A DNA stretch of 32,000 nt from Candidatus Pacearchaeota archaeon (GTDB lineage: Archaea > Nanobdellota > Nanobdellia > Pacearchaeales > UBA284), in NCBI GenBank assembly GCA_026016245.1, contig CP061211.1, forward strand, positions 630,001-662,000, read 5' to 3'. A program made the translations under genes and the position numbers. The first letter of the stretch is position 1. Each line of letters begins with the position of its first letter. The notes under the pieces are model-generated. The model searched no databases. It was not told the DNA's origin and saw only the letters and a list, made by a program, of their open reading frames with translations. This document shows, one piece after another, positions 41 through 26,811 of the stretch.

Positions 41-3031
41 ATGAAAAGAGCTATCTTAGTATTTGTTATAATTTTTCTTGCTTTTATTAGTCTGAATCTT
101 GTTAGTGCAGCAACAAATGTTAGTCAATGCATGAATCTAACAAATGAGTCAGAAATTTATACTTTAAATCAACCTATTAATATAACTGGGGGTGATTGCC
201 TTGTAATTAAAAATAATTCAATAGTGTTAGACTGTCAGGGACATAATATAACTGTTAATGGGGCAGACGACAAGGATTGGCGTGCTGTTGATAATGAGCA
301 GGGTTATGATAATATAACTGTTAAGAACTGTACATTTTCACAAAACTTCACAGGACCAACAGAAGAAGGAGAAGGACAATATGCAATTGGTTTTATAAAT
401 TCTATAAACTCAACGATTTTTAATAATACATTTGAAGTTTCTGGGATTTTCTTTGGGAATTCAAGTAATGCTAATATAACTTCAAATACTCTAAATTATT
501 CAGGTGGTTCAGCTCCAATTTCTTTGTTCTCTGGTTCAAATTCAAGTGTTGTGGAGAATAATAATATTACAACTACTGGCTTAGGAATTTTGGTCGAAGC
601 TTCATCAAGTATTAACATTAGTTCGAATACTATTACTTCTTCTGGTGAAAATCAGAGTGTAATTGGTATTGGTTCTTCATCAAACATTAGTGTTGATTTA
701 AATACTATAATAATTTCTGGTACTAATGCAACAGGGATTGTATTAGTTATGGCTACGACTGATACAAATATAACTACAAATAATATTACATCTTCTGGTA
801 TTGGAGCAGCTGGAATTGGTGTAGTCGATAACTCAGATTCAAATCTTTTATATAATAATACAATTACAACTTCTAATGATACTGCATTTGGGATTATGTT
901 GGACGGAGTAAGTAGCACTAATATTATAAATAATACTATAACTACCAGTCATACTTCTTCAGATGGAATACATAGCGAGGATTCTAATTCAACTATCATA
1001 TTTAATAATACAGTAAAAACCGAAGGTAATGAGTCAGACGGAGTTTTTATTTTCAATGGTTTATCTAATAGTATAACTAATAATACATTTAATACAACAG
1101 GATATGCTTTCGGTGTAGGGGGTCCAACCTGTGATTATTATAACCATACTGTAACAGATAATACAGAGCAAGGAGAAAAGATTTTATATTATTTTGATAA
1201 TGATTCAATAACAATAGAAGATCAAACCTTTGGGGAATTAATCGTAACTTGTTCTAATAATATAACAATAGACAACGTATCAGTCAATCATGATGGTATT
1301 GTTCTTGTTATTACAGAAAACTCTACTATTAATAATAGTAATTTCACTACTGCTGAACTTGGGATACACGGAGTGTTTTTTATTAATAGTTCTCATAATA
1401 ATGTAACAAATTGCAGAGTAAGAACTTTGGCAGATGGAGAAACATGTGTTATTGCTTTTCAATCCTCTGATTATAATCTTCTTTACAATAATGTTCTTAA
1501 TGTTTCAGCAGCATCAGTAAGTTCCTCTGGATTTTGTTGGCATCCTTCTTCACCTATGAATAATAATTGGAATACAACAGAGACAGTAGGAAAAAATATT
1601 ATAGGGGGTCCAAATTTGGGTGGAAACTTTTGGACAAATTCATTAGGCACAGGATTTAGTGATACATGTACTGATTCTGACGGCGATTATTTTTGCGATA
1701 CCGCTTTAAATCTTAAAGGTGGTCCTGGCAATGATACTAATAATATAGACTATCTCCCTCTTGCTAATCATACTAATGCAGTCTGGGAATGCAAGACATT
1801 AGATATTGAAGATGAAATTTATTTTTTAAATCAAAGTATTGAGGTCAATGGAAATTGCTTTAATATTACTGCAAATAATATTACTCTTATTTTCCTTAAA
1901 GGGAAAAATATAACAGGGGATACTACTGGATATGGCATTAATATTAGTGGTAATGATACAACAATAGAGCATGGAGTAATTTCTAATTTCTCAAATGGAA
2001 TTTATATTTATAACAGTTCAAATAATGCATTTACTGATATTCGTATAGATTGGGCTAAACAAGATGCGATTGTTTTAGAAGGAACGGAGTCAGATAATAA
2101 TAACTTTACAAGAATAAATGTAACAAACACAAATGCTTCTTATTATGATATTAATTTTAGCACAGAAGGTATTGATGGAACATGGATTGAAAACATTCTT
2201 TTTGCAAACTATACATTTACAGGAACAGGAGGGAAAGTTAATTTCAAAGAGCCAGATTTTGGAGAAATTAGGTTTTTACAGGCAATTAATGGCAATGGAA
2301 CTAGTCTTAGGAAGGATGTTGATATTGAAAATAAATGGGCATTTGTTAATTCTTCTAGTAATTCAGGATTAAATAAAAGTGCAAATATATCCTTTTATGA
2401 GGTATCTTTTACAGATCCCAAACCTCAATATAGTCTTGATGACAGTATATGGGTAAATTGCACTACAACTACAGATCCTGCTTGTACTGAATTCCCTTTC
2501 ACTAAGGGAGGTACTTTTACATTTAATGTATCTCACTTTACTTACTTTAGAATTATTGAGGCATATTCTGCTGAAGAAGATGGAAATGGCGGGGGTGTTA
2601 CAGGTGGCAGTTCTGGAATGAAAAGAATGAATATAGCAATACAAGGAAATTGCAAAAATCAGCCAATTATAATAAAAGCCACATTCCAGAATAAAGCTGT
2701 TGAAGGTGTGCATATTAAAGTTTATAGAAATGATGAATTACTTAAAACATTAGAAACAGATAGCGAAGGAAAAGCAAATATTATTTTAAATGAAACTGGT
2801 AATTATGAATTAAAATTTACAAAAACTAGATATTATTATGAAACAAGAACTTTAGTTGTTGTAGATTGTGGAGAAGCTGAAGAAGAGGAAGAAGTACCTG
2901 ATGAAGAAAAACCAGAAGAAGAAATGCCCCCTAAACCAAGTTTCTGGCAGAGCTATTGGTGGCTTATCTTGGTAATTGTTGGGGTGATTATTGTAGCAGT
3001 TGTTTATTTGATAATACATAAAAAGAAATAA
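41..3031 (+). CDS. Secreted cell-surface protein with two parallel beta-helix (PbH1/NosD-like) repeat modules, a CarboxypepD_reg-like Ig domain, an acidic linker and a C-terminal TM anchor
   Basis: Sec-type signal MKRAILVFVIIFLAFISLNLVSA. Dozens of short N-N-x-I-T-x-S-G type repeats typical of right-handed beta-helices. NxS/T sequons are very dense. Near the C-terminus: IKVYRNDELLKTLETDSEGKANIILNETGNYELKF, then EEEEEVPDEEKPEEE, then WWLILVIVGVIIVAVVYLII-HKKK. Confidence 0.75.
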   Translation: MKRAILVFVIIFLAFISLNLVSAATNVSQCMNLTNESEIYTLNQPINITGGDCLVIKNNSIVLDCQGHNITVNGADDKDWRAVDNEQGYDNITVKNCTFSQNFTGPTEEGEGQYAIGFINSINSTIFNNTFEVSGIFFGNSSNANITSNTLNYSGGSAPISLFSGSNSSVVENNNITTTGLGILVEASSSINISSNTITSSGENQSVIGIGSSSNISVDLNTIIISGTNATGIVLVMATTDTNITTNNITSSGIGAAGIGVVDNSDSNLLYNNTITTSNDTAFGIMLDGVSSTNIINNTITTSHTSSDGIHSEDSNSTIIFNNTVKTEGNESDGVFIFNGLSNSITNNTFNTTGYAFGVGGPTCDYYNHTVTDNTEQGEKILYYFDNDSITIEDQTFGELIVTCSNNITIDNVSVNHDGIVLVITENSTINNSNFTTAELGIHGVFFINSSHNNVTNCRVRTLADGETCVIAFQSSDYNLLYNNVLNVSAASVSSSGFCWHPSSPMNNNWNTTETVGKNIIGGPNLGGNFWTNSLGTGFSDTCTDSDGDYFCDTALNLKGGPGNDTNNIDYLPLANHTNAVWECKTLDIEDEIYFLNQSIEVNGNCFNITANNITLIFLKGKNITGDTTGYGINISGNDTTIEHGVISNFSNGIYIYNSSNNAFTDIRIDWAKQDAIVLEGTESDNNNFTRINVTNTNASYYDINFSTEGIDGTWIENILFANYTFTGTGGKVNFKEPDFGEIRFLQAINGNGTSLRKDVDIENKWAFVNSSSNSGLNKSANISFYEVSFTDPKPQYSLDDSIWVNCTTTTDPACTEFPFTKGGTFTFNVSHFTYFRIIEAYSAEEDGNGGGVTGGSSGMKRMNIAIQGNCKNQPIIIKATFQNKAVEGVHIKVYRNDELLKTLETDSEGKANIILNETGNYELKFTKTRYYYETRTLVVVDCGEAEEEEEVPDEEKPEEEMPPKPSFWQSYWWLILVIVGVIIVAVVYLIIHKKK

Positions 3032-3051
3032 TTTTCCTTTTTTATTTTTTT
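3032..3051 (+). terminator. Oligo-T tract directly after the surface-protein stop codon (archaeal-type terminator candidate)
   Basis: TTTTCCTTTTTTATTTTTTT starts 1 nt after the TAA at 3029-3031. Confidence 0.35.
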
Positions 3052-3083
3052 AATTTTAATAGTTTTCTTTATAAATTAAGAAA

Positions 3084-3165
3084 CGCCCGGACCAGGATTC
3101 GAACCTGGATATCCTTGCGGAAACCAGCTCTCAAGGCTGGCGCCTTACCATTGGGCCATCCGGGC
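3084..3165 (-). tRNA. tRNA-Ser (anticodon UGA), class II with long variable arm, no encoded CCA, no intron
   Basis: The reverse complement folds by hand into a cloverleaf: acceptor GCCCGGA/TCCGGGC, 3-bp D stem GCC/GGC, anticodon stem CCAGC/GCTGG with loop CTTGAGA (anticodon TGA), variable arm TCC-GCAA-GGA, T arm CCAGG-TTCGAAT-CCTGG, discriminator G. Confidence 0.92.
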
Positions 3166-3189
3166 TTAAAAGAATAGAAGAAAAGAAAC

Positions 3190-3197
3190 TTATAAAA
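3190..3197 (-). promoter_or_regulatory. TATA box candidate for the tRNA-Ser gene
   Basis: On the minus strand, TTTTATAA ends 24 nt upstream of tRNA position 1. Confidence 0.4.
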
Positions 3198-3220
3198 TTA
3201 ACTTTTAATTATCTAGGAAA

Positions 3221-3958
3221 TTATTCAAGAGGCTTACTACTCATGGTTTCGATTAAAGCGAGAACAAATCTCTCACTAGTTTCTAGGGTTTCACAGTCAG
3301 CTATCTCTAAAATATAGCAATAATCTTCTTGATGAATATAACTTTCATCTGTATCTGATTCTTTAAACAGGATGACGGTTGTTCCTTGCTCTGCATGCGA
3401 ACAATTTTTTATTTCATGAGTCACATTTTCATAAGTTTCTGATATATTACCTGCTAGATTATTTGCGAAAACTCCTTGTTTTTTTAATCCTAGTGCATCA
3501 ATGAAGTCACCAACACGCCATGCAGCCAAGACAATAGAATCTGTGCATTGTAAAGGCTCTGCTTCAAATGATATATAGACCATTCTTTGAGGCTTGGTTT
3601 TTACATCTGCTTGTATTTTTTCTAGTTTTCTTGGGTCATTTCTCAGGTTTAAAATATAGAAAAAAGTTTTATTTTCTACTGGGCGATAGATAGCTATTTC
3701 TGTTGAATAAATCATTAATCCCTTATGATCTGTTTTATGCCAGGTCATTCCTTTCCACTCAAAAACATTTCCTACAAGTCTGCCCCACTCAGCTGAAATT
3801 TCTTCTCTAAAAATAACATAGAACAAAGCCAGGGCCATTAATAATATAATTATTACAAGAGTCCAGATAATTCTTTTTGTGTTAATTCTCCTGGCTGTCT
3901 TGACTTCTTTTCCCCTATCTTTATCTTCTTTTTTAGGTTTTTTTTGTTTTCTTGCCAT
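3221..3958 (-). CDS. Membrane-anchored extracytoplasmic protein, unknown family (tandem paralog of 3966..4598)
   Basis: The track ORF 3221..3964 starts at a TTG; the first ATG is at 3958 (MARKQKK...). Basic N-terminus, one TM helix (IIWTLVIIILLMALALFYVIF). The C-terminal part aligns by eye with the neighbouring protein (IKNCSHAEQGTTVILFKE...CYILE versus IKSCDDATLEITIVEIKE...CLIIE). Confidence 0.6.
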   Translation of the reverse strand: MARKQKKPKKEDKDRGKEVKTARRINTKRIIWTLVIIILLMALALFYVIFREEISAEWGRLVGNVFEWKGMTWHKTDHKGLMIYSTEIAIYRPVENKTFFYILNLRNDPRKLEKIQADVKTKPQRMVYISFEAEPLQCTDSIVLAAWRVGDFIDALGLKKQGVFANNLAGNISETYENVTHEIKNCSHAEQGTTVILFKESDTDESYIHQEDYCYILEIADCETLETSERFVLALIETMSSKPLE

Positions 3959-5700: not shown

Positions 5701-5746
5701 TTACTTTTTAAATCTTTTGTTTCAAGATTAAAAACAAAAAATAATC

Positions 5747-5763
5747 AAAAAAAAGAAAAAAAA
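5747..5763 (-). terminator. Oligo-T terminator candidate downstream of the S-layer gene
   Basis: The minus strand reads T8-C-T8 about 20 nt after the stop codon at 5785-5787. Confidence 0.45.
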
Positions 5764-5784
5764 TGAAACTAAGTTTTTTCTGAC

Positions 5785-8181
5785 TTAAGCTATTACAGTG
5801 ACTGTTGTTGTGGCAGTATCTAGCAAGATCTTGTCTCCGCTTATAACTGGAGTGCTTTCTCTTAGGACTTTAGCTGCTCTTGCAGTATCCAAGTCCTCGT
5901 AACCTGCAACTATCATAGCGTATTTGCCTTCTGCGTAAGGACTTGCCATGACATAAATCATAGCCTTACCCAAAGCATCAACGCCTGTAGCATCTATCCA
6001 AGCTTGTTCAGTACCATATGTAGGATAGTCCAAACCAAGTACATCAGCTGTTGCGCTGTTGATACCTGAACCACCTGCAAAGATTAAGTTCATGTCCTGG
6101 ACAGTTGCTAGCTCATCATCATAAGCTCCAATAGCTGCCCCACCAGCATATCCTGGTGTAAGCTCTGGGATTGTTGCAAGTAACTCTGAAACATAGACTT
6201 TGTGGATAGCTTCCTCTTCTGGATATGTCCAAGTAAGATCATCGTCATCATCTGTATTGAATCTGAAGAGTGCTCCAAAATCTATAGCATCAATAGCTAC
6301 GTCATAGTCAGAGTCTTTTTCTTCAGCATCCCATGCTAGAGCGCTTGTTGAGTCTGGAACAATTATCATGTCACCAGTACCATCATCTTCAAGTGTCCAT
6401 GCTTCTGCACCAATCAAATCAGTGCCATCGTCAGTAAATAGCTGGGCATTTGCATTTGTGGTATCAAACTGAAGGTCTATCTCGCCTGCTAATGATGTCA
6501 AAAAGTCTCCTGCCTCACAAGCTGTGCCACAAGTATTGATGATAGTTGCAGTAGTTGTGTTAGTTGCATTAACAACCTCAAGTGTTATTGTAGCGAAACC
6601 TAGAACAATAGGATTAGAATAATCTCTATCATTCCAAGATGTTGAGCCTGGAGATATTTCTTTCAAGTCCAGTGTCTCGTCGGCAATGTCAATATCATCT
6701 ATCTCCAAGATTCTTGCCTCACCACCTGTTCCAACAACAAGCAAGTAAATGCCTTCACATTCAGTAACTGAAGCACCGCCAGTACATCCATCGCCATCAG
6801 CGATAAGCAAATTACCGCCTGGTCCAGCTGCTGGTCCATTTCCATCTTGAGTTACATTGATAGCTGCTCCAATGTCTGTAGCAAGATCATCTCCCGGATA
6901 TGTTTCATTAGATGTATCATCCAAGATGAACGGAATTTCAAGAACATCACCTGCGACATTTGTGAACTCAAGTATACCATCATCTCCACTTGTTGTCAAG
7001 CTAAATGACTCTGTGTCAGACAACAATCCTTGGTAAGTGAATTTGAACCTACCTAAAATAGGATCTGTCCAAGATTCTCCTGTAGCCAAGAATATGTCAT
7101 CATCAGGTGTAAGTTCTAAGTTGATTTCAGCAAGCTCTTCATGTGCAGCGCCTGCCTGCAATTCAACGTCTGAGCCATCTATTGGTTCGCCATTGATTTC
7201 AATTTCATTTCCTTGTTCAAAGTCCATTTTTTCAGCTCCAAGATAAAATGTTACCAAGTCATTACCAACAGCTTGCTCGCCACTCATCTCAGCTCCTTCA
7301 TTAGGCACAACATCTAAGACACCTACTCTTGTATCATCTTCAAGAGTATAGGTATCACTTTCAACCATTTTATCAGTCTCTTCGCCATTTATTACTAAAA
7401 TAACAGATGCTCCTACGTCTGAGATAATCTTTACTTCTACTTCATAGGTTTTTCCACCCATGGTATAGGTTTCAGTGCTGTACTCCCATTGAGAAGCTTT
7501 CAATGCTCCACCCATTATTGTCAATGAATCTATTTCCATGACGCCACCACCGATATCTTCTGCAGTCGCATCTACGATGAAGTATTCTCTTCCAAGCATT
7601 TTTAACTTGGTTAGTTCGAAATCTTCATCTATAGTGCCTGTATCAGTTGAGTCAAATTCTACAGGGTTGTCAAATACTAATCTATAGTTATATGCTACTA
7701 CAGCATCATCAAAATATAGATAAGTATTGACTGGTCTATTAGATGTTTCTCTATTTCGCAAGAAATCCATTGTTCCTGTGCTATTAGTAAATTCAATGAA
7801 TTGTTCATAGCTAACATCATTATCTGTATTACCTCTTGATTCCCGATATCTTCCATCTGCTAACAGGACATCAAGGTCCCTAGCTTCAAGAGTATCTTCT
7901 ACATCAAACAAATCCTCGCCGTAGTTTAGGTCATTTCCTGGAGCAGCGATTAGATGAGCTTCTCCTGTTGGAGCTGCTCCGCCGTCTCCAGCAAAACCTA
8001 GAGCTGCTGTTAAGTCTACCACAGCCAAAGCATCAGCATTTCTGTGGAAAACTATAGCAGTATCAGTTCCTGGGAAATTGTTTCTCCAAGTTGCTAGATC
8101 TTGAGCCATTGCGAATCCAACGCTTGTTAGTCCTAGCATACATGCCACTGCTAAAGGTGCAATTTTCTTTAACAGTTTCAT
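5785..8181 (-). CDS. S-layer-like major surface protein (acidic, Lys-poor, Thr/Asp/Gly/Ala-rich)
   Basis: Sec signal MKLLKKIAPLAVACMLGLTSVGFAMA-Q. No TM anchor. The terminal segments resemble the archaeal S-layer protein family (for example MIVAGYEDLDTARAAKVL near the C-terminus); this is recognition from memory. The track start at 8208 is a GTG, so the ATG at 8181 is preferred. AAGGAGGT lies upstream, but 15 nt from that ATG. Confidence 0.65.
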   Translation of the reverse strand: MKLLKKIAPLAVACMLGLTSVGFAMAQDLATWRNNFPGTDTAIVFHRNADALAVVDLTAALGFAGDGGAAPTGEAHLIAAPGNDLNYGEDLFDVEDTLEARDLDVLLADGRYRESRGNTDNDVSYEQFIEFTNSTGTMDFLRNRETSNRPVNTYLYFDDAVVAYNYRLVFDNPVEFDSTDTGTIDEDFELTKLKMLGREYFIVDATAEDIGGGVMEIDSLTIMGGALKASQWEYSTETYTMGGKTYEVEVKIISDVGASVILVINGEETDKMVESDTYTLEDDTRVGVLDVVPNEGAEMSGEQAVGNDLVTFYLGAEKMDFEQGNEIEINGEPIDGSDVELQAGAAHEELAEINLELTPDDDIFLATGESWTDPILGRFKFTYQGLLSDTESFSLTTSGDDGILEFTNVAGDVLEIPFILDDTSNETYPGDDLATDIGAAINVTQDGNGPAAGPGGNLLIADGDGCTGGASVTECEGIYLLVVGTGGEARILEIDDIDIADETLDLKEISPGSTSWNDRDYSNPIVLGFATITLEVVNATNTTTATIINTCGTACEAGDFLTSLAGEIDLQFDTTNANAQLFTDDGTDLIGAEAWTLEDDGTGDMIIVPDSTSALAWDAEEKDSDYDVAIDAIDFGALFRFNTDDDDDLTWTYPEEEAIHKVYVSELLATIPELTPGYAGGAAIGAYDDELATVQDMNLIFAGGSGINSATADVLGLDYPTYGTEQAWIDATGVDALGKAMIYVMASPYAEGKYAMIVAGYEDLDTARAAKVLRESTPVISGDKILLDTATTTVTVIA

Positions 8182-8782
8182 CTTATTTATTTTTAAACCT
8201 CCTTTCACTCATTGTTTTTATTAGCCAGCTTTTCAGCTTTTTTCAATCAAGCAACTATATTAAGAACGTAAATAGTAGTTTTAGCAATATTATTCATTCC
8301 TAAGCCTAAAGCTAAGAACTGAACAAAATTCAACCAAAAAACATATTTTACATTCATTTTATTTTACCTGACTGATGCCTTCCACAGTTTAGACTTTGAC
8401 ACTATTGAATTTGTGTATATCTAAACTATGAGTCGCGACCCTTTTATTAGAAAGGATCACTGGCCAGTTTTATAACATATTGCTATGTTACAATAAAAAT
8501 CTCGGGTTTTTTCTTTTTAAAGGTTTCGACAGAACTGATTTTAACACCTTTTCTATGTATTTTTATTTATAAATCTTATGCCCCTATTTAATAATTACCA
8601 CAAATCAGGACATTCAAGGTTCTTTTAGATGTGGGGTATATTTTCAGACATATATGGTTTTTGAAAACATATATAATAGAACAATAATGTTTAAGTATAT
8701 ATTTTGTTTCTCTCTATTAGAATAATTGTCGTCGTGTTTTTTACTCAATAGAAAGAACAAAACAAATAAAAAGGAATGAAAA

Positions 8783-9166
8783 ATGCCTAGAAAGAAAAAA
8801 ATAACAAAAAACGTGGTTATTAAGCTTAGTCTTACTGAATCTAGTGAACCTGGCTTTTTGTTAGGAGTTTTGAGAGCTCCGTGGCCAATAAAATCTGATT
8901 CAGAATTTTCAGTAAGGCAGCTTAGACAGCTTTTGAGTGGGGGAAAAGCTAAGATTTTGCATGTTCTAAAGGTTAAAAAGCCAAAATCCATCTATTCTTT
9001 GGCCAAGGAACTTGAAAGAGATTTTAAGGCTGTAAGGCAGGATTTAAAGCTATTAGAACAGTTTGGATTTGTTCGTTTAATCCCTGAGCAAGATAAAAAG
9101 ACAGGAAAGAACAGGCTTAAGCCTGTTATAGGATTAGACAAACTTCAAGTGAATATAGAAGTTTAG
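8783..9166 (+). CDS. Winged-helix (ArsR/MarR-like) DNA-binding protein
   Basis: SIYSLAKELERDFKAVRQDLKLLEQFGFVRL matches a helix-turn-helix plus wing pattern. Confidence 0.55.
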   Translation: MPRKKKITKNVVIKLSLTESSEPGFLLGVLRAPWPIKSDSEFSVRQLRQLLSGGKAKILHVLKVKKPKSIYSLAKELERDFKAVRQDLKLLEQFGFVRLIPEQDKKTGKNRLKPVIGLDKLQVNIEV

Positions 9167-9184
9167 AAGTCTAGATTTATAGTT

Positions 9185-9685
9185 TTAATTGGACTTGTAA
9201 TAATAGAATCTTAGCTTGACTATTATATCTTCTCCTGTTAGTGTAGGAAGAGGAACACTTGAACCAAAATAATTACCTTCTAGCTGGCCATTTTCTCTAT
9301 AAAATATTTCTTTAGTATTACTTATATTCATAATATAGCCATGAATATAGGCATCAGCTATACTTTCCTCAAGAAATCCTTCTAACATAGTATCAAGTTC
9401 AGTTTCTAAAAAATCGCAAGTGTTTATATTATTATCACAAAATCTGTTATTATTGCACTCTCTAGGTAGTTCTCTGATATTCTGAGGAGAGCCAGCTATC
9501 TTACATTCAGTTGTATAGCTTAGCATTGCTTGAAGAAGATCATCTAATTCAGCTTGTTTTGGCTCTATGATTTCAGATTTTGGGCGTAAGGCAAGGGCAA
9601 AGAAAACAAGACCTATGACCATGACTATAAGAACTATAATTACAAAGCCAAAAACTTCTTCTTGTGCTTTTTTATTGTTTTCCAT
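9185..9685 (-). CDS. Type IV pilin-like protein (class III signal peptide), Cys-rich extracellular domain (pilin-like D)
   Basis: MENNKKA-QEEVFGFVIIVLIVMVIGLVFFALAL: short basic leader, KKAQ cleavage-type motif and a hydrophobic helix. Five Cys in the mature part. Confidence 0.65.
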   Translation of the reverse strand: MENNKKAQEEVFGFVIIVLIVMVIGLVFFALALRPKSEIIEPKQAELDDLLQAMLSYTTECKIAGSPQNIRELPRECNNNRFCDNNINTCDFLETELDTMLEGFLEESIADAYIHGYIMNISNTKEIFYRENGQLEGNYFGSSVPLPTLTGEDIIVKLRFYYYKSN

Positions 9686-19690: not shown

Positions 19691-21493
19691 ATGAAAAAAG
19701 AATTGTTTGGAAAAAGAGGTTTTTTGTTTGGTAATGAAGCTATTGTTAGGGGAGCTCTTGAATCAGGAGTTGGTTATGCTTCTAGTTATCCTGGAACACC
19801 AGCAACTGAGATTGGAGATACTTTTGCTGCAATAGCAAAAGACACTGGGATTTATTTTGAGTGGTCAGTGAATGAGAAAGTTGCTTTAGAAGCTGCAGCA
19901 GGAGCTGTTTTTTCTGGTATTAAGGCTTTAGTGTCGATGAAACATTATGGATTAAATGTAGCTTCTGATAGTTTATTACCTTTAGTTTATCTTGGATGTC
20001 CTTTTGTTGTTGTAGTAGCAGATGATCCTGGAAGCTGGTCGAGTGTACAGGCAGAACAAGATACAAGATGGTTTTCAAGATTAATACATGTGCCAACACT
20101 TGAACCAAGTAACAGTCAGGAAGCAAAAGACATGACAAAATTTGCTTTTCAATTTTCACAAAAACACAAAATTCCTGTTTTAGTAAGGCTAACAACCAGA
20201 ATTTGTTATTCAAAATCTTTAGTTAATTTTGGTAAGATCAAGAAAGGCAAAAAGAAAGGCAAATTTGTGAAAAAAGAATTTAAATTAGGGTCAGCACAGA
20301 CTGTTGCCCTACATAAAAAATTACTTGAAAAACTAAAAAAAATAAGAAAGGACTGTGAAAAATCAAAATTGAATTTTATTGAGGAAGGAAGAGGTAAAAT
20401 TGGAATTATTACTTCTGGTGTTGCCTATATTTATATCAAGGAAGCATTTCAAGAATTAAAAATAAAATTACCTTTACTAAAGTTAGGATTTAGTTATCCT
20501 TTCCCTTCTGATAAAGTCAAAAATTTTCTAAAAAATTTAAAAAAAGTAATTGTTATTGAAGAACTTGATCCAATAATCGAAGAAGAAGTTAAAAAATTCT
20601 CTAAAAAAATAAAAATATATGGCAAGGATTTTTTTTCCGAAGCTGGTGAATTGAAACCTGAAGATATTTTAGTTAATCTAAGTAAAATTCTAGGCAAAAA
20701 AATTGACAGGAACTTAAGTTATAATATTAAAAATTATAAGGAGCCAGAAAAAAGAATTCCTTTCTTTTGTCCAGGATGTCCTCATAGAAGCACATTTTAT
20801 GCTGTCAAAAAAGCTTTAGGAAAGAAAATTTTTGCAGGAGACATAGGCTGTTACATGTTAGGAGTTTATGAACCTTTTAGAATGCAAGATTTTGTTGTAA
20901 GCATGGGGGCTTCTGTTGGTATAAGTCACGGAATTTCTAAGGCAAGTGGACAGAAGCCAGTTATTTTTATTGGGGATAGTACTTTTTTTCATGCAGGCTT
21001 GCCATCCTTATTGAATCTTGTTTATAATAAAGCTAATGCTTTAGTTATTGTTTTAGATAATAGATGGACTGCCATGACAGGACACCAGCCTAATCCAGGT
21101 AGTGGTTTGACTGGAATGAAAAAAGAAACTAAAATAGCAAATATTGAAGAAATTGCCAAAGCTCTTGGAGTAGATTTTGTAAAAACTTCGAATGTCTGGA
21201 ATTTCAGTCAGTTTGTTAAAGATTTAAAGCAAGCTTATAGTATTAAAGGAGTTTCTGTTATTGTAGCTAAAGGCGAATGCAGGCTTGCTTTTATAAGGCA
21301 AGCTGTAAGAAAAGGAATCAAACTTCCTAAATTTAAAATTAAAAAACAAGATAAAAAGTTAGAGCAGTTAAAAGATTTTGGATGTCCTGCAATAAAAAAA
21401 GAAAAAGGTAAATGGTTGATTGATAAAGATTTGTGTTGGAGTTGTTCTATTTGCAAGCAGCTTTTTCCAGATTTAATAGAGGTGGAAAAATGA
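19691..21493 (+). CDS. iorA: Indolepyruvate:ferredoxin oxidoreductase alpha subunit, with a reduced C-terminal ferredoxin domain
   Basis: GNEAIVRGALESGVGYASSYPGTPATEI N-terminus. TPP region GDIGCY...GDSTFFHAG. C-terminus GCPAI...CWSCSICKQLFP. Confidence 0.9.
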   Translation: MKKELFGKRGFLFGNEAIVRGALESGVGYASSYPGTPATEIGDTFAAIAKDTGIYFEWSVNEKVALEAAAGAVFSGIKALVSMKHYGLNVASDSLLPLVYLGCPFVVVVADDPGSWSSVQAEQDTRWFSRLIHVPTLEPSNSQEAKDMTKFAFQFSQKHKIPVLVRLTTRICYSKSLVNFGKIKKGKKKGKFVKKEFKLGSAQTVALHKKLLEKLKKIRKDCEKSKLNFIEEGRGKIGIITSGVAYIYIKEAFQELKIKLPLLKLGFSYPFPSDKVKNFLKNLKKVIVIEELDPIIEEEVKKFSKKIKIYGKDFFSEAGELKPEDILVNLSKILGKKIDRNLSYNIKNYKEPEKRIPFFCPGCPHRSTFYAVKKALGKKIFAGDIGCYMLGVYEPFRMQDFVVSMGASVGISHGISKASGQKPVIFIGDSTFFHAGLPSLLNLVYNKANALVIVLDNRWTAMTGHQPNPGSGLTGMKKETKIANIEEIAKALGVDFVKTSNVWNFSQFVKDLKQAYSIKGVSVIVAKGECRLAFIRQAVRKGIKLPKFKIKKQDKKLEQLKDFGCPAIKKEKGKWLIDKDLCWSCSICKQLFPDLIEVEK

Positions 21494-21912
21494 AATCAAA
21501 ATTAGTCTCTGCTTGTTTGTTAGGAATCAAATGTGCTTGGGATGGTAAAGATAACCTCAATAAAAAAGTTATTAAATTGTCTAAAAAAGAAATTTTGATT
21601 CCTGTTTGCCCAGAACAACTTGGGGGTCTGTCAACTCCAAGAGAACCTTCAAACCAAAGAGGGAAAAAAGTTGTTTCAAAGTCAGGAAAGGATGTTACCA
21701 AAAATTTTGTGAAAGGAGCTAAAGAAACTTTAAAATTAGCTAAACTATTAAATATTAAAGAAGCGATTTTGAAACAAAAAAGCCCTTCTTGTGGTTGCGG
21801 CCGAATTCATGACGGAACTTTTTCTGGCAAGACTATCGAAGGTGATGGTGTTACTACAACTTTACTTAAAAGGAATGGAATTAAAGTAATTAGTGAGGAG
21901 GAACTGAAATGA
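21490..21912 (+). CDS. DUF523 (TudS-like) Cys-rich protein inserted between iorA and iorB
   Basis: The ATG at 21490 gives MKSKLVSACLLGIKCAWDGKDN, the family N-terminal pattern. It also has PVCPEQLGG and SPSCGCG. ATGA overlaps on both sides. The track start at 21433 lies inside iorA and was rejected. Confidence 0.75.
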   Translation: MKSKLVSACLLGIKCAWDGKDNLNKKVIKLSKKEILIPVCPEQLGGLSTPREPSNQRGKKVVSKSGKDVTKNFVKGAKETLKLAKLLNIKEAILKQKSPSCGCGRIHDGTFSGKTIEGDGVTTTLLKRNGIKVISEEELK

Positions 21913-22469: not shown

Positions 22470-22515
22470 AAATTTTAAAATTTTCTGATTTTTATTTAAA
22501 AAACTTTCTATTTTT

Positions 22516-22539
22516 GGTTTTGTGAAGTCTTCGGTTGAT
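22516..22539. repeat. Terminal inverted repeat, left
   Basis: Exact reverse complement of 26710-26733. Starts with GG, as IS6-family ends do. Confidence 0.85.
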
Positions 22540-22559
22540 AAATTTAATAAAAAAAATAA

Positions 22560-22703
22560 TTAACCCTTCTTTTTTCTCGGTCTATTCCAATAAGGGCTTT
22601 TACATTTAGGGCATACTTTTGGCTCTTCCTTGCTATTTCTTCTTGGCATCCAAATATGACCACACCTCTCGCATTTATATCCCTCTATTTTTATCTTTGC
22701 CAT
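22560..22703 (-). CDS. 47-aa zinc-ribbon protein (CxxC ... CxxC)
   Basis: Not in the ORF track. Translates to MAKIKIEGYKCERCGHIWMPRRNSKEEPKVCPKCKSPYWNRPRKKKG. Confidence 0.55.
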   Translation of the reverse strand: MAKIKIEGYKCERCGHIWMPRRNSKEEPKVCPKCKSPYWNRPRKKKG

Positions 22704-22829
22704 ACCCATAAGTATATTATTTTTAGTATATAAACATTATTGCGATACAAAACATACCTTAAATTTCAATAGTCTTTATATATACCTAATACTATTATAT
22801 TATTAAGAATAGAGGTGATTAAATTCAAA

Positions 22830-23720
22830 ATGAAAAAAATTCAAGGACAAGAATACAAGGAAATTTCTGTCCATAAGGCAGATAAATGTCCTTACTGCAA
22901 GAACAAAAAGATAGTAAAGAATGGCTATCGCTTTAATCATACAAAGAAAAAACAAAGATATATCTGCAAGGAATGTGATAGAACTTTTGTAGTAGATGAT
23001 GGCTTCAAAAAGATGAAGTCAGAAAGAGAACTCATAACCTGCTGTCTTGATTTGTATATGAATGGAATGTCTTTAAGAAAAATTGAAGCTCATATTAATC
23101 AATTCTCACAAGAAAAAATAACTTACAGAAGCATACATAATTGGATTATTAGATATGCTAAACTGCTAAATTCATTCTCGCAAAGCTTTGATTTAAATTT
23201 ATCAAGACAATATCATACAGATGAGATTTTTGTTAAATGCAAGGGAGAACAGCATTATTTCTGGGATATAATTGACAAAGGCACAAGAATGCTCATAGCA
23301 ACACATTACAGCGAGAAGCGAGATAGCAAGAGTGCAAGAATGCTTTTCTTGAAGGTTAAGAACAGACCCTTAACACTATTTACAGATGGCTTACAAGGTT
23401 ATCAGAAAGCAGTAAGAAAGGTATTTGGAACTTTACATAAAGATAGAAAAGTTCAATACATTAGATTAAGAGCTAACAAAGACAAAAGAAATAATATTGT
23501 TGAGAGAATACAAGGAACAATTAGAGAGCGAATTAAAGTTATGAGGGCTTTCAAAAATAAAAAAGATGCTGAATTGTTTTTAGATTTGTTTGTTGTCTAT
23601 TATAATTTTATTCGTGTTCATCAAGGCATAGGAATGACACCAATAGAAAAAGCTGGTGTTGAGCTTGGGCTTGGCGAGAATAAATGGCTTGATTTGATTT
23701 ATAGAGCAAGAGGATTATGA
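22830..23720 (+). CDS. IS6-family DDE transposase with N-terminal zinc finger
   Basis: CPYCKNKK...CKECDRTF. DDE triad contexts HTDEIFVKCKG, LFTDGLQGYQKAV and NNIVERIQGTIRERIKVMRAF, then YNFIRVHQGI. The ATG at 22830 is preceded by AGAGGTGAT. The track start at 22815 is a GTG. Confidence 0.85.
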   Translation: MKKIQGQEYKEISVHKADKCPYCKNKKIVKNGYRFNHTKKKQRYICKECDRTFVVDDGFKKMKSERELITCCLDLYMNGMSLRKIEAHINQFSQEKITYRSIHNWIIRYAKLLNSFSQSFDLNLSRQYHTDEIFVKCKGEQHYFWDIIDKGTRMLIATHYSEKRDSKSARMLFLKVKNRPLTLFTDGLQGYQKAVRKVFGTLHKDRKVQYIRLRANKDKRNNIVERIQGTIRERIKVMRAFKNKKDAELFLDLFVVYYNFIRVHQGIGMTPIEKAGVELGLGENKWLDLIYRARGL

Positions 23721-26087
23721 ATTTATTTCTAAATATTTGGAATAATTTAAACCTTTTATATAATTCTCAATCCAATCCCAATCTACTTTTCTATTTTTAA
23801 AAGGCAGTTTAATAATTGTTTCTTTAATCCTATCCTGATTGAATTTTCTACCATAAGAATACCTATATTGTTCCATATTTATTATCGTAGCTAAGAATAA
23901 AGCCCTGAATACATTTAAATTGAATTTAGGTATTAATTTCTCTACATGGTCACTTGCAGAGAATTTAAGGGGTTGATAAGAACAAAATCCAATTGTAGCA
24001 CTATCAATTGTTAATACATTCCCCTCATCTGTATAAAAATTATAAAATCCTCTTACTCCGTTATTTGTTGCTTGTGTAGTTACATAAGGATACTTTCCCT
24101 CTTTATACCTTTCTTCAAGAATTTTTTTATCTGTTGTTTTTGAACCCTTAACATCAAATAATTTTTTTAATTGTATAAATTTCCATTTCTTGAAATCTAA
24201 TTTCAATTTTTTATTACTATAACTTTCCCTTGAAACTTTGTCTTGTAATTCATTATGATAAAGAAAAGTAGAGTATTCTCTTAATGTTTTCTCAAAATTT
24301 TTATCTGTTAAATTTTTAAATTTTGTTTTAATATATGGCTCAACTAACAACTCATCATCAAAATCTACGTGTCTTAATATAGAAAACCCTTCAATTTCTT
24401 TTTTATTGAAAAAACTATTTAACCACAATTTTTTTATTTTATCCCGATAAATACCATAATAATCTATTCTGCCATAAGGTCTTACTTTAATAAAGCCATC
24501 ATTTTTCCAGTAACCAAACCATGTTTTAGTATTTTTACTATGTTGTTTATGGGCTTCAAAAATTAAAATACAAGCAACTGCATTTGTATTGCTATCTTCA
24601 AATAAGGTATTAGACATACTCATCACTGCCTTTAAAGTATGTTTCTGTAATAATCTTTTTTTAACTGCTAAATTTCCTTTCTTTGTATTCATAGCACAAG
24701 ATTGAGGCACAATTGCTATACAAATTCCATTAGGTTCTAAAAAAGACAAGGCATTTTCAATAAAGGTTAATTCTTTATGTCCATTCCCTTTTGAATAAGG
24801 GGGATTAAGAAAAGCAATTGTTGGTTTAAATTTTTTAATTTCTTCCTCATTAATCTCAAAACAATCTTGCTGATGTATATTTGATTTTCCATCTCCCCTC
24901 AGCATCATATTTGAACAAGCAAGAACGAACATTTTAGGATTATTTTCAATACCTATTAACTGCTTTTTGTGAATGTGCTTTATTTTTGTTTTATCACCTT
25001 TTGCTTCTTCTTCCATTCTCCTCATAGCACTTATTAAAAAGCCACCAGTTCCACAGCAATTATCAATAATGATACTGTCTTTATTTACTTCTGCGAGGTC
25101 TGAAAATAACTCTGTTATATGTTTTGGTGTTAAAACTATTCCCAAACCACCATCACTATTAGCATACCTTAAAAACTCGTTATAGAATAAACCTAAAATA
25201 TCATGGAATCTATAATTTTGGGAAAATGGTTTGATATTATATTCTACTTCTTTAATTAAATCTTTTAAAAGAGTGTTTGGAGTTCCATCTTTATTTTTTG
25301 CATTTATAATTTTTGTATTTGTTCTCATAAAACCATAAGTCTGGACTATTGTATTTTGTTTAACTCCTTTAATATTATCTCGCTCTAATCTTTCTTTTAT
25401 TGTTGTTATTATCAAATCTGCTATTTCAAGGGGCTTTTCTTTTTTTAAATATGATAAACAAAAGCCCTCATCTTCAAGAGCCAATAAAATTCCACTAACA
25501 ATTAAAGGTCTAAGATTTTCTTCAAATTCAAAATCATCTCTTAATTTTTGATTTAATAATTGTGAATATTCTATTAGTCTTTTAAAATCAACTTTTTCTT
25601 TTATATCATCTTTTTTTAGAATACCAAAATAATCAACAAACTCATAAATTTTTTGTATTTTTAAATCTCTTGCATTTTTTTCTCTTCTTATTTGTAGGTA
25701 AGTATCAATCACAAGTTCTTTTTTAGTTTGTCCAGAAGCCCCAATAGAAATAACATCAAATTCTTTTGATAAATAAGAAGAATAAAGCAAAACACCATCA
25801 ACAGCGTATGTATCATATTTATCTAAATTTTTACTTTTATGGTATTTTATATCTCCTTTGCATTCTACCACAATTATTAAATCCTTATTTGGAAAGCTTA
25901 TAATAAATTCTGGATACCCCATTCCACTTCCTTTTTTAGAAGCGGTCTTAAGAAGTTTATCTATTCGTGGATTGTCTGATTTTTGTTCTTCTATAATAAC
26001 TGATTGTTCTGTTTCCTTTTCATATTCATTTTTATTTTTATATAAAATATCTCTTATAATCTTTTCAGTTTTTCTTTCATTAACCAT
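23715..26087 (-). CDS. Single-chain restriction-modification-specificity enzyme (Type IIG/IIC-like): PD-ExK nuclease, gamma-class N6-adenine methyltransferase and one HsdS-like TRD
   Basis: GYPEFIISFPNKDLIIVVECK (nuclease). IIDNCCGTGGFL (motif I) precedes FLNPPYSKG (motif IV). C-terminal TRD: WKFIQLKKLFDVKGSKT...YPYVTTQATNNGVRGFY. Confidence 0.8.
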   Translation of the reverse strand: MVNERKTEKIIRDILYKNKNEYEKETEQSVIIEEQKSDNPRIDKLLKTASKKGSGMGYPEFIISFPNKDLIIVVECKGDIKYHKSKNLDKYDTYAVDGVLLYSSYLSKEFDVISIGASGQTKKELVIDTYLQIRREKNARDLKIQKIYEFVDYFGILKKDDIKEKVDFKRLIEYSQLLNQKLRDDFEFEENLRPLIVSGILLALEDEGFCLSYLKKEKPLEIADLIITTIKERLERDNIKGVKQNTIVQTYGFMRTNTKIINAKNKDGTPNTLLKDLIKEVEYNIKPFSQNYRFHDILGLFYNEFLRYANSDGGLGIVLTPKHITELFSDLAEVNKDSIIIDNCCGTGGFLISAMRRMEEEAKGDKTKIKHIHKKQLIGIENNPKMFVLACSNMMLRGDGKSNIHQQDCFEINEEEIKKFKPTIAFLNPPYSKGNGHKELTFIENALSFLEPNGICIAIVPQSCAMNTKKGNLAVKKRLLQKHTLKAVMSMSNTLFEDSNTNAVACILIFEAHKQHSKNTKTWFGYWKNDGFIKVRPYGRIDYYGIYRDKIKKLWLNSFFNKKEIEGFSILRHVDFDDELLVEPYIKTKFKNLTDKNFEKTLREYSTFLYHNELQDKVSRESYSNKKLKLDFKKWKFIQLKKLFDVKGSKTTDKKILEERYKEGKYPYVTTQATNNGVRGFYNFYTDEGNVLTIDSATIGFCSYQPLKFSASDHVEKLIPKFNLNVFRALFLATIINMEQYRYSYGRKFNQDRIKETIIKLPFKNRKVDWDWIENYIKGLNYSKYLEINS

Positions 26088-26196
26088 TCTAAACCTTTTT
26101 TTATAAAGGGATGGGCTTTCTTAAATGTTCCGTATGGAATGTTATTCCTTTTTAGTCAATAAAAAATTATAAAAGGTTTGATTTTTAAATATAAAT

Positions 26197-26343
26197 ATGG
26201 CAGACATTTGTGAAAACTGTAAAAAGGCTATCAAAGATGATATGAAGAAATTAGTCAGTCAGAATGATAGCGAAGAAAATATTTATTTTTGTAGCTGGAA
26301 GTGTCATGAAGAGTTTGAAGAAAAAATTAACGGGAAAAAATAA
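26197..26343 (+). CDS. 48-aa TRASH/zf-FCS-like zinc-finger protein
   Basis: Not in the ORF track. Translates to MADICENCKKAIKDDMKKLVSQNDSEENIYFCSWKCHEEFEEKINGKK (CxxC ... FCSxxC). Its TAA is followed directly by the next ATG. Confidence 0.55.
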   Translation: MADICENCKKAIKDDMKKLVSQNDSEENIYFCSWKCHEEFEEKINGKK

Positions 26344-26676
26344 ATGAATAAAACCAAAATTAAAATTTTCTTGAAAATTACCAAAATAATAAATAAGAAG
26401 TTTTGTAAAGATAAGCTTGAGATTAATAAGATAGTATTTTTTAATGGAAAACACAAAGGTAAGAAAAATGATGGCTATTATGCAGTAAATAGTAAAATAA
26501 TAGGTATAAGCAAAAAAGAGCCATTATTTTGCCAGATTAGGACATTACTACATGAACTTACTCATGCTTACCAAAATCAGATTATGAATTGCAAAGGAAA
26601 GCATAATAAACAAGGAGAAAGAGTATTTTATAAATTTATGAAAGAGATAGATAAAACATTAAAGATTTCTGTGTAA
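26344..26676 (+). CDS. Small SprT-like HExxH zinc-metallopeptidase-domain protein
   Basis: LLHELTHAYQNQIMNCKGKHNKQGERVFYKFM: HExxH plus a downstream His, in an SprT-like arrangement. 110 aa. Confidence 0.5.
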   Translation: MNKTKIKIFLKITKIINKKFCKDKLEINKIVFFNGKHKGKKNDGYYAVNSKIIGISKKEPLFCQIRTLLHELTHAYQNQIMNCKGKHNKQGERVFYKFMKEIDKTLKISV

Positions 26677-26709
26677 ATATGATATTCACTTAATTTTTTT
26701 ATCCATTCC

Positions 26710-26733
26710 ATCAACCGAAGACTTCACAAAACC
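26710..26733. repeat. Terminal inverted repeat, right
   Basis: ATCAACCGAAGACTTCACAAAACC, the exact reverse complement of 22516-22539. Confidence 0.85.
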
Positions 26734-26811
26734 CTATGACGAAAGATTTATAAAAGAAAGGTTATAATCAAACATATTGGTTATGAAATAATCATTATAG
26801 GCTAAGGGAAA

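Follow-up and report, generated by a model that had tools for sequence, protein, structure and literature searches.

Insertion sequences (ISs) of the IS6 family are very homogeneous: most are 700-890 bp long, the longest about 1.76 kb, and classical members consist of one gene between 14-bp repeats and produce an 8-bp target duplication (PMC7986276). Their tips begin with GG and carry a G at position 7 (PMC6807381). The family has been regarded as uniformly small and free of cargo, moving other genes only as two-copy pseudo-compound transposons, and a 2021 review lists ISDsp3 of Dehalococcoides as its sole passenger-carrying member ('tIS') (PMC7986276). Here we analyse a stretch of 32,000 nucleotides from a Candidatus Pacearchaeota archaeon (GenBank assembly GCA_026016245.1, contig CP061211.1, positions 630,001 to 662,000 of the forward strand; hereafter the window), in which 24-bp inverted repeats enclose five genes, among them one for an IS6-like transposase. 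We conclude that positions 22516-26733 are very probably one intact unit transposon, or 'transporter IS', of an IS6-like clade in DPANN archaea. IS6-like elements as such are already known; what is new is a transporter IS clade in DPANN with defence-type cargo.

The 24-mer at the left end has its exact reverse complement at the right end (24/24), and with up to three mismatches allowed these two inverted copies were the only ones in the window; 100 shuffles gave none. The initial annotation, made from the sequence alone, had described a perfect pair with no further copy, starting 46 bp past the iorB stop (22469) and ending 78 bp short of the next gene (26812), and the pair and both distances were correct. 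It had also found no second repeat copy next to the transposase gene. Indeed, no shorter inverted-repeat pair around that gene rose above background (best 13/16, compared with 12-14/16 in shuffles), and the element contained no internal end-like copy, the nearest sequence having 9 mismatches in 24. A search of species-representative genomes with the 24-mer gave no match, and Rfam and tRNA scans of the window returned nothing bearing on the element. The G+C content is 26.4% in the restriction-modification (R-M) gene, 27.6% in the element, 36.8% in psmA and about 33% in the remaining window; the contrast first estimated between the R-M gene and psmA (~22% vs ~43%) therefore stands in direction but not in size.

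The most informative comparison came from the iorB homologue closest to that of the window on a long contig, which is 78% identical (P0242, locus L034, with L035 as a second contig). Around it, the gene order is that of the window: psmA, SBDS, exosome genes, enolase, PCMT, iorA, iorB, an 89-aa winged helix-turn-helix (wHTH) gene and Endo_dU. In both L034 and L035, 109 bp lie between iorB and wHTH. Thus, the uninterrupted junction that the initial annotation had proposed to look for exists in a relative, and the arrangement it had named as counterevidence, the same genes in relatives without the repeats, was not seen: none of the five element genes is present at this site. In the junction alignment, the empty L034 row reads ...AAAAAACTTTCTATTTAATTGCGAAAGATTTATAAAAC... 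and the window row reads ...AAAAAACTTTCTATTTTT[4218 bp]CTATGACGAAAGATTTATAAAAG..., so that the inserted block begins and ends precisely at the repeat tips. By this comparison of sequences, the whole unit has evidently been inserted between iorB and wHTH of a Pacearchaeota genome, upstream of a promoter-like TATA element of wHTH.

The empty site, CTTTCTATTTAATTGCGAAAG, contains CTAT once, whereas in the window CTAT is found on each side of the element. The initial statement that no target-site duplication is visible is consequently right for a full 8-bp duplication and wrong for these four bases. We read the doubling of CTAT as a decayed 8-bp target duplication rather than the plain absence of one: CTATTTTT would have been doubled, and the right copy would then have lost TTTT by one 4-nt loss in the T run (CTAT[TTTT]GACG). 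About 25 nt of complementarity outside the repeats, which gives the appearance of an extended inverted repeat ('70 nt, 77%'), corresponds to a CTTTC-N11-GAAAG palindrome that is also in the empty site. This symmetry is native host sequence and no part of the element, which sits in the middle of the palindrome (window 22504-22508 and 26741-26753), directly upstream of the BRE/TATA-like GAAAGATTTATAAAA that precedes the wHTH gene. The right flank of a related element described below (L006, 9360-9379), unrelated to that of the window, likewise reads GAAAGATTTATAA. The shared look of the flanks may stem from a preference for AT-rich targets near promoters, or from coincidence; a single ancestral insertion common to the two loci was rejected, since the flanking genes are unrelated and the likeness is that of a BRE/TATA-like promoter motif.

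A scan of one genome per species with the transposase alignment as query yielded 12 loci in DPANN metagenome-assembled genomes, from Nanoarchaeota, Woesearchaeota, Pacearchaeota, Aenigmatarchaeota, AR18 and AR20, and two further loci were added through exact-protein look-ups. Besides the window, 12 independent loci carry a transposase (52-70% identical) between inverted copies of one end family, giving a clade sample of 13 elements. The consensus of the ends is GGTTCTGT-AA-N5-6-GGTTG(A/G)T, with tips reading GGTTTTG... in the window and GGTTCTG... in the 12 relatives; the end of IS257, GGTTCTGTTGCAAAGT, can be set beside the GGTTCTGT of this family. From end to end the relatives span 2371-5116 bp. 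No short (~1-kb) member was found, and none of the 13 elements is under 2.4 kb. Perfect direct repeats abut the GG tips in 10 of the 12 relatives, and these are 8 bp long (9 bp in L004); by our estimate from base composition, a single match of this kind has a chance probability of about 4e-5.

When the 13 elements were compared all against all by blastn, only the transposase gene and the ends were common to them, apart from an R-M block that the window has in common with L006. Because the duplications lie round whole units, only transposase and ends are common, and no member is under 2.4 kb, we conclude that the units transpose whole and that cargo carriage is the rule in the clade. The claim that the whole 4218-bp unit, and not a ~1-kb IS, is the mobile entity is borne out by the empty site, the family of bounded units and the duplications in relatives. 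A transporter IS has passenger genes that lie inside its ends and move with it, and this is what the empty site and the enclosing duplications of the relatives indicate. The cargo amounts to 1.4-4 kb and one to five genes, which in the relatives lie on either or both sides of the transposase; R-M or DNA methylase genes are part of it in 9 of the 13 elements (Table 1). The G+C content is usually lower in the elements than in their hosts, L010 being extreme (0.39 vs 0.56).

Table 1. Features of the window element and of related loci, with target duplications and cargo
Feature	Locus	Position	Strand	Remarks
Complete transposon, tip to tip of repeats	window	22516-26733		4218 bp; absent en bloc from the empty site (L034/L035); five genes
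Left flank CTATTTTT	window	22508-22515		presumed left copy of 8-bp target duplication
Left terminal inverted repeat GGTTTTGTGAAGTCTTCGGTTGAT	window	22516-22539	+	exact pair partner; starts with GG, G at position 7
Zn-ribbon gene, 49 aa	window	22560-22709	-	Cys4 type; divergent from transposase; Pfam Zn_ribbon_8 1e-6, under cutoff
Transposase, 296 aa	window	22830-23720 (alternative GTG start 22815)	+	N-terminal Zn finger, helix-turn-helix (HTH), DDE domain
Type IIG-like restriction-methylase-specificity enzyme, 790 aa	window	23715-26087	-	cargo; predicted, single chain
zf-FCS/MYM-type Zn-finger protein, 48 aa	window	26197-26343	+	cargo; Pfam zf-FCS 8.6e-6, 25.9 bits (cutoff 22.4)
HExxH (HELTH) metallopeptidase-like protein, 110 aa	window	26344-26676	+	cargo; Pfam DUF6782 28.7 bits (cutoff 27)
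Right terminal inverted repeat	window	26710-26733	-	perfect copy of left repeat
Right flank CTATGACG	window	26734-26741		presumed decayed right copy of target duplication, CTAT kept
Zn-ribbon gene (45-51 aa)	L002	5760-5906	divergent	motif GYKCERCGHxWxPR...CPKCKSPYW (window and all five loci)
Zn-ribbon gene	L007	4379-4516	divergent	
Zn-ribbon gene	L010	4825-4962	divergent	
Zn-ribbon gene	L025	1903-2058	divergent	
Zn-ribbon gene	L031	142-294	divergent	
Target duplication TAAGAAAG	L002			cargo Holliday-junction-resolvase-like nuclease
Target duplication CTTTTTAT	L003			cargo N6_N4_Mtase and type II restriction endonuclease
Target duplication CTGTCCCGT	L004			9 bp; cargo Eco57I-type
Target duplication CTAATTCT	L005			cargo PIN domain protein and ribbon-helix-helix (RHH) protein
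Target duplication TAATATTT	L008			cargo DNA methylase or R-M genes
Target duplication GGTGTGAA	L009			cargo DNA methylase or R-M genes
Target duplication AAAATAAG	L011			cargo RelA/SpoT-like protein
Target duplication GGTTTTTT	L012			cargo methyltransferase (MTase) and HNH
Target duplication GTTTTTTG	L017			cargo HTH_3 (XRE-type) regulator and uncharacterised 226-aa protein
Target duplication CTTTTTTT	L029			cargo MTase and MwoI-like
Cargo type IIG R-M	window, L006			
Cargo type II MTase	L010			
Cargo ClpP-like and trypsin-like proteases	L003, L008			

In L002, L003, L004, L006 and L029, the two ends of the element differ systematically, one being of an ...AAATCTTCGG... type and the other of an ...AAGTT(A/G)TCGG... 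type. Four of these loci (L002, L004, L006 and L029) have the AATCTTC-type end upstream of the transposase, but in L003 it is downstream, although the ends of L003 are otherwise near-identical to those of L004; the interior of L003 thus appears flipped relative to its ends. When L002 was rebuilt without 5719-9277 (the element and one copy of the duplication), a 171-aa open frame was obtained with the junction at about residue 87. The frame contains an HEIGH motif, and this points to disruption of a metallopeptidase-like gene by the L002 copy. Two more distant relatives, L025 (38% identity) and L031 (40%), were rejected as bounded units, having no convincing ends or duplications; a 22-bp inverted pair with a spacing of 4.8 kb is a candidate in L025, where an R-M pair of the MvaI/BcnI type also adjoins the transposase gene.

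The transposase of the window matched Pfam DDE_Tnp_IS240 (2.3e-20, 73.6 bits; cutoff 27), and its top NCBIfam model was transpos_IS6 (NF033587), with 122.5 bits (curated cutoff 125) and coverage of positions 1-202 of the 202 in the profile, in agreement with the initial IS6-type assignment. The protein also matches the IS1/IS1595 Zn-binding domain at its N-terminus. Residues D131, D186, E225 and R232 are invariant across 31 transposase homologues. After the catalytic E, the window protein reads ERIQGTIRER (E-x6-R-x-R), not the E-DH---K signature of short bacterial IS6/IS26. NCBI lists an identical protein under the name 'IS1/IS6 family transposase [Ca. Pacearchaeota archaeon]'; separate exact-protein look-ups with the transposase and with the Zn-ribbon protein gave no record. 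The nearest annotated relatives, found on plasmids, are of the clostridial ISCpe7 type (28-29% identity over 92-95% of the protein), and no relatives were found on viral contigs. The transposase stop overlaps the R-M stop (23720 vs 23715), as had been annotated.

In L002, L007, L010, L025 and L031, a homologue of the small Zn-ribbon gene likewise precedes the transposase in the same position and orientation, and this placement holds even at transposase identities of 38-40%. The Zn-ribbon proteins of the window and L025 are 67% identical, though their transposases share only 38%. In L003 and L005, a small RHH gene takes this position. It is possible that the Zn-ribbon protein is an accessory or regulatory partner of the transposase, within the transposition module. 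Among Logan contigs of the same strain (run DRR463595), L015 ends at window position 22544, 29 nt inside the left end, and L014 begins at 23495, inside the transposase gene; the Zn-ribbon/transposase stretch is unassembled and the cargo is assembled. This break may be a sign that the sample contains additional copies or variants of the transposition module. No alternative junction was obtained from these contigs, which break inside the left end and the transposase gene.

The largest cargo gene encodes a 790-aa protein with matches to Pfam N6_Mtase (9e-28) and Methylase_S (2e-18) and, in PADLOC, to REase_MTase_IIG (1.4e-129, residues 2-613) and Specificity_II (residues 637-779). These profiles uphold its earlier description as a restriction-methylase-specificity (R-M-S) enzyme. 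The NPPY and S-adenosylmethionine (SAM) motifs are invariant and the N-terminal residues E60, E75 and K77 conserved in 38 homologues, and an AlphaFold2 model (pLDDT 85.5) places E60, E75 and K77 in an alpha/beta N-terminal domain. A Foldseek search with this model returned HsdM-type methylases and, over their full length and among the top matches, BpuSI, BsaXI and DrdV; global TM-scores were low (0.3) because of the multi-domain arrangement. The protein is thus predicted to be a type IIG-like R-M-S enzyme with all three functions in one polypeptide. Three small genes for Zn proteins had also been proposed. Two are of the Cys4 type (the Zn-ribbon and zf-FCS proteins), but the third is a HExxH metallopeptidase-like gene with weak Pfam support, showing weak matches to Peptidase_M78 and SprT-like profiles besides DUF6782. 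Neither the 48-aa zf-FCS protein nor the 110-aa HExxH protein had a homologue in the other elements examined.

The alternative that survives best, although we consider it improbable, is that the locus is a collapsed composite transposon, in which the R-M genes originally lay between a pair of IS copies, one of them since reduced to its outer repeat, leaving a fossil that is immobile as a unit. Pseudo-compound transposons are the classical means by which IS6-family elements mobilise genes (PMC7986276), a clean target duplication is missing from the window copy, and the position of cargo on either or both sides of the transposase in relatives is what loss of one copy would give. However, neither the element nor the window contains another transposase fragment, and the element holds no internal repeat-like sequence. 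Furthermore, 10 relatives with one transposase have perfect 8-9-bp duplications round the whole unit, indicating that such units insert as they are. A composite of this kind may nevertheless have been the origin of the first cargo capture.

The R-M gene belongs to a very large family (7678 matches, Patescibacteria among them). Its closest homologue (84% identity; L032 2683-6355 / L033 1368-5040) lies directly downstream of a tyrosine (phage-type) integrase gene and not beside an IS6-like gene, which indicates that the R-M cassette travels on several kinds of element. A comparison of window 23714-26125 with L006 6888-9321 (element coordinates 1215-3648) gives 80% identity in DNA and 78% in protein for the R-M block. 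In the window, this block and the transposase gene converge, but in L006 they are co-directional; the cassette was therefore captured twice or flipped inside the ends. Both the integrase neighbour and this inversion, since the cassette clearly moves by other routes too, would suit a genomic island brought by an integrase, homologous recombination or a plasmid, with the IS6-like gene as a passenger and the repeats incidental. We regard such an island as very unlikely: the element has no integrase or other recombinase, the boundaries of the insertion match the repeat tips to the base, and the 8-bp duplications in relatives are a signature of DDE transposition, not of tyrosine-recombinase integration.

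Among metagenome contigs, the 24-mer had one match, an exact copy at 1872-1895 of L001 (Ga0187771_10061192), a 2.9-kb archaeal contig unrelated to the window, about 50% in G+C and without a transposase. A second, degenerate copy (GATTCTGTGAAGTCTTCGTCTGCT, 2545-2568) follows in direct orientation 673 bp away, with an Lrp/AsnC-type gene between the two, and the G+C content drops from 0.51 to 0.43 at the motif. On this truncated contig, the motif may mark the left boundary of a close relative of the element whose host lies outside DPANN. That the 24-mer is instead a host or regulatory repeat, such as an operator, that brackets an accessory island by chance and is not recognised by the transposase would fit its palindromic core (GAAGTCTTC) and the copies beside the regulator gene on L001, yet this reading is largely refuted and highly improbable, as the motif is missing from the empty site and from the remaining 27.8 kb of the window, occurs in 13 loci of different hosts only as an inverted pair round a homologous transposase with duplications abutting the GG tip (so that, in place of the general intergenic repeat the initial annotation had considered, the 24-mer and its variants end transposase units at 12 loci other than the window), and the G+C step on L001 is that expected for the left boundary of an element on a truncated contig.

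Several points weigh against an intact IS6-like unit transposon. The window copy lacks a clean 8-bp duplication (CTATTTTT vs CTATGACG), only CTAT being doubled, and with it L006 and L010, 3 of the 13 elements, are without clean duplications; the transposase gene of L006 is split. There is a single copy of the element in the 32-kb window. The NCBIfam IS6 score falls 2.5 bits short of the curated cutoff, and the nuclease activity of the 790-aa enzyme is predicted from profile and fold matches. Harmer and Hall argue against including archaeal and long Zn-finger IS6-like elements in the IS6/IS26 family, and they point out that there are no experimental data for archaeal or long IS6-like elements (PMC6807381).

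The mechanism we propose for the unit transposon is for this last reason an extrapolation. The transposition module comprises the DDE transposase with its Zn finger, the two 24-bp ends that it presumably binds and probably the Zn-ribbon gene, and all other genes between the ends, namely those for the type IIG-like enzyme and two small proteins, are cargo. By extension from the IS6 family, the transposase would cut at the GG tips, and copy-in (replicative) strand transfer with an 8-bp stagger would give a cointegrate (PMC7986276). Host homologous recombination between the two element copies would then resolve the cointegrate, so that a single element with an 8-bp duplication on its flanks remains. 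In the window, the right-hand copy of this duplication would later have lost about 4 nt. We hold this copy-in/cointegrate route for the window element with moderate confidence. The R-M cargo may serve to defend the host against foreign DNA, and it may also stabilise the element by post-segregational killing.

Two other features of the window lie outside the element. A 140-aa gene of PF04463 (2-thiouracil desulfurase family) at 21490-21912, between iorA and iorB, is missing from L034, where iorA directly overlaps iorB. The G+C peak at 6-8 kb is due to an 807-aa open reading frame (5785-8208, minus strand) with a signal-peptide-like N-terminus and 41% G+C, compared with a window average of 32%.

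The 13 single-transposase units with 1.4-4 kb of cargo, 10 of which (relatives only) have 8-9-bp duplications, indicate that IS6-like transposases can directly mobilise multi-gene payloads. DPANN archaea have tiny genomes and are host-dependent, and a clade with a mostly R-M or toxin-type payload is a testable vehicle for the acquisition and exchange of defence genes in them. The defined 24-bp ends and the 296-aa transposase also offer a compact system for the biochemistry of archaeal IS6-like transposition. More tentatively, and as a conjecture that we find plausible rather than probable, the clade could be DPANN-wide and never occur as a bare IS. A two-gene core (transposase and Zn-ribbon or RHH partner) in 24-bp ends would shuttle interchangeable defence/addiction cassettes (type II/IIG R-M, PIN/RHH, RelA-SpoT-like toxins), swapped or flipped inside the ends, from one ultra-small archaeon to another and also to unrelated hosts with a higher G+C content, and would be a principal route of R-M exchange at genome sizes of ~0.7 Mb.

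This clade did not turn up in a keyword search of a 2026 survey of archaeal ISs (PMC13343696) or in full-text literature searches, which do not reach ISfinder. With the IS6/IS26 family (IS26, IS257/IS431) the window element shares the DDE_Tnp_IS240 domain, the GG...G7 tips and, in its relatives, the 8-bp duplications; the match to NCBIfam IS6 covers the full profile with a score just under the cutoff. It differs in its length of 4.2 kb, its five genes, its 24-bp repeats and the extra N-terminal Zn finger on the transposase, and its identity to plasmid-borne relatives annotated as IS6 family is no more than 27-29% over 82-95% of the protein. In the broad sense of ISfinder, the DDE/HTH organisation and the GG...G7 tips are those of IS6, but the compact transposase-only form (0.7-0.9 kb) is not; an 8-bp duplication is found in 10 of 12 relatives, and the window copy retains 4 of 8 bp (CTAT). 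The element falls outside IS6/IS26 in the strict sense of Harmer & Hall (2019), lacking E-DH---K and being only 27-29% identical to bacterial IS6-family proteins.

The long clostridial IS6-like elements (ISCpe7 group; clade VII of Harmer & Hall 2019) have an N-terminal Zn-finger extension as well and include the nearest annotated relatives (PMC6807381), but they are bacterial, 1.2-1.3 kb long, cargo-free and of low identity. Archaeal IS6-like ISs (haloarchaeal, Sulfolobales, Thermococcales/Methanococcales) resemble the element in having archaeal hosts and terminal repeats of at least 18 bp, longer than the bacterial consensus. Their signature is E--F---K-R (PMC6807381), and the window transposase has E-x3-x-x3-(K/R)-x-R spacing (E225...R232-x-R234). 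By published descriptions, however, they are set apart as single-gene elements of ~0.7-1 kb. ISDsp3 likewise carries a passenger gene inside IS6-family ends (PMC7986276); it is 1456 bp long with one hypothetical passenger and known as a single copy, whereas the DPANN clade carries 1.4-4 kb of mostly R-M or toxin-type genes.

Among R-M enzymes, the cargo protein resembles the type IIG enzymes (BpuSI; R-M-S fusions) in its N-terminal nuclease-like domain, its gamma-class N6-adenine methylase with NPPY and its C-terminal specificity domain, but its methylase and specificity parts are HsdM/HsdS-like and not of the Eco57I/MmeI type. Finally, Tn7-like transposons also carry variable cargo dominated by defence systems (PMC8649781). 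Their machinery is unrelated and multi-protein, and they are much larger and site-specific, whereas the DPANN clade has one DDE gene and no evident site specificity.

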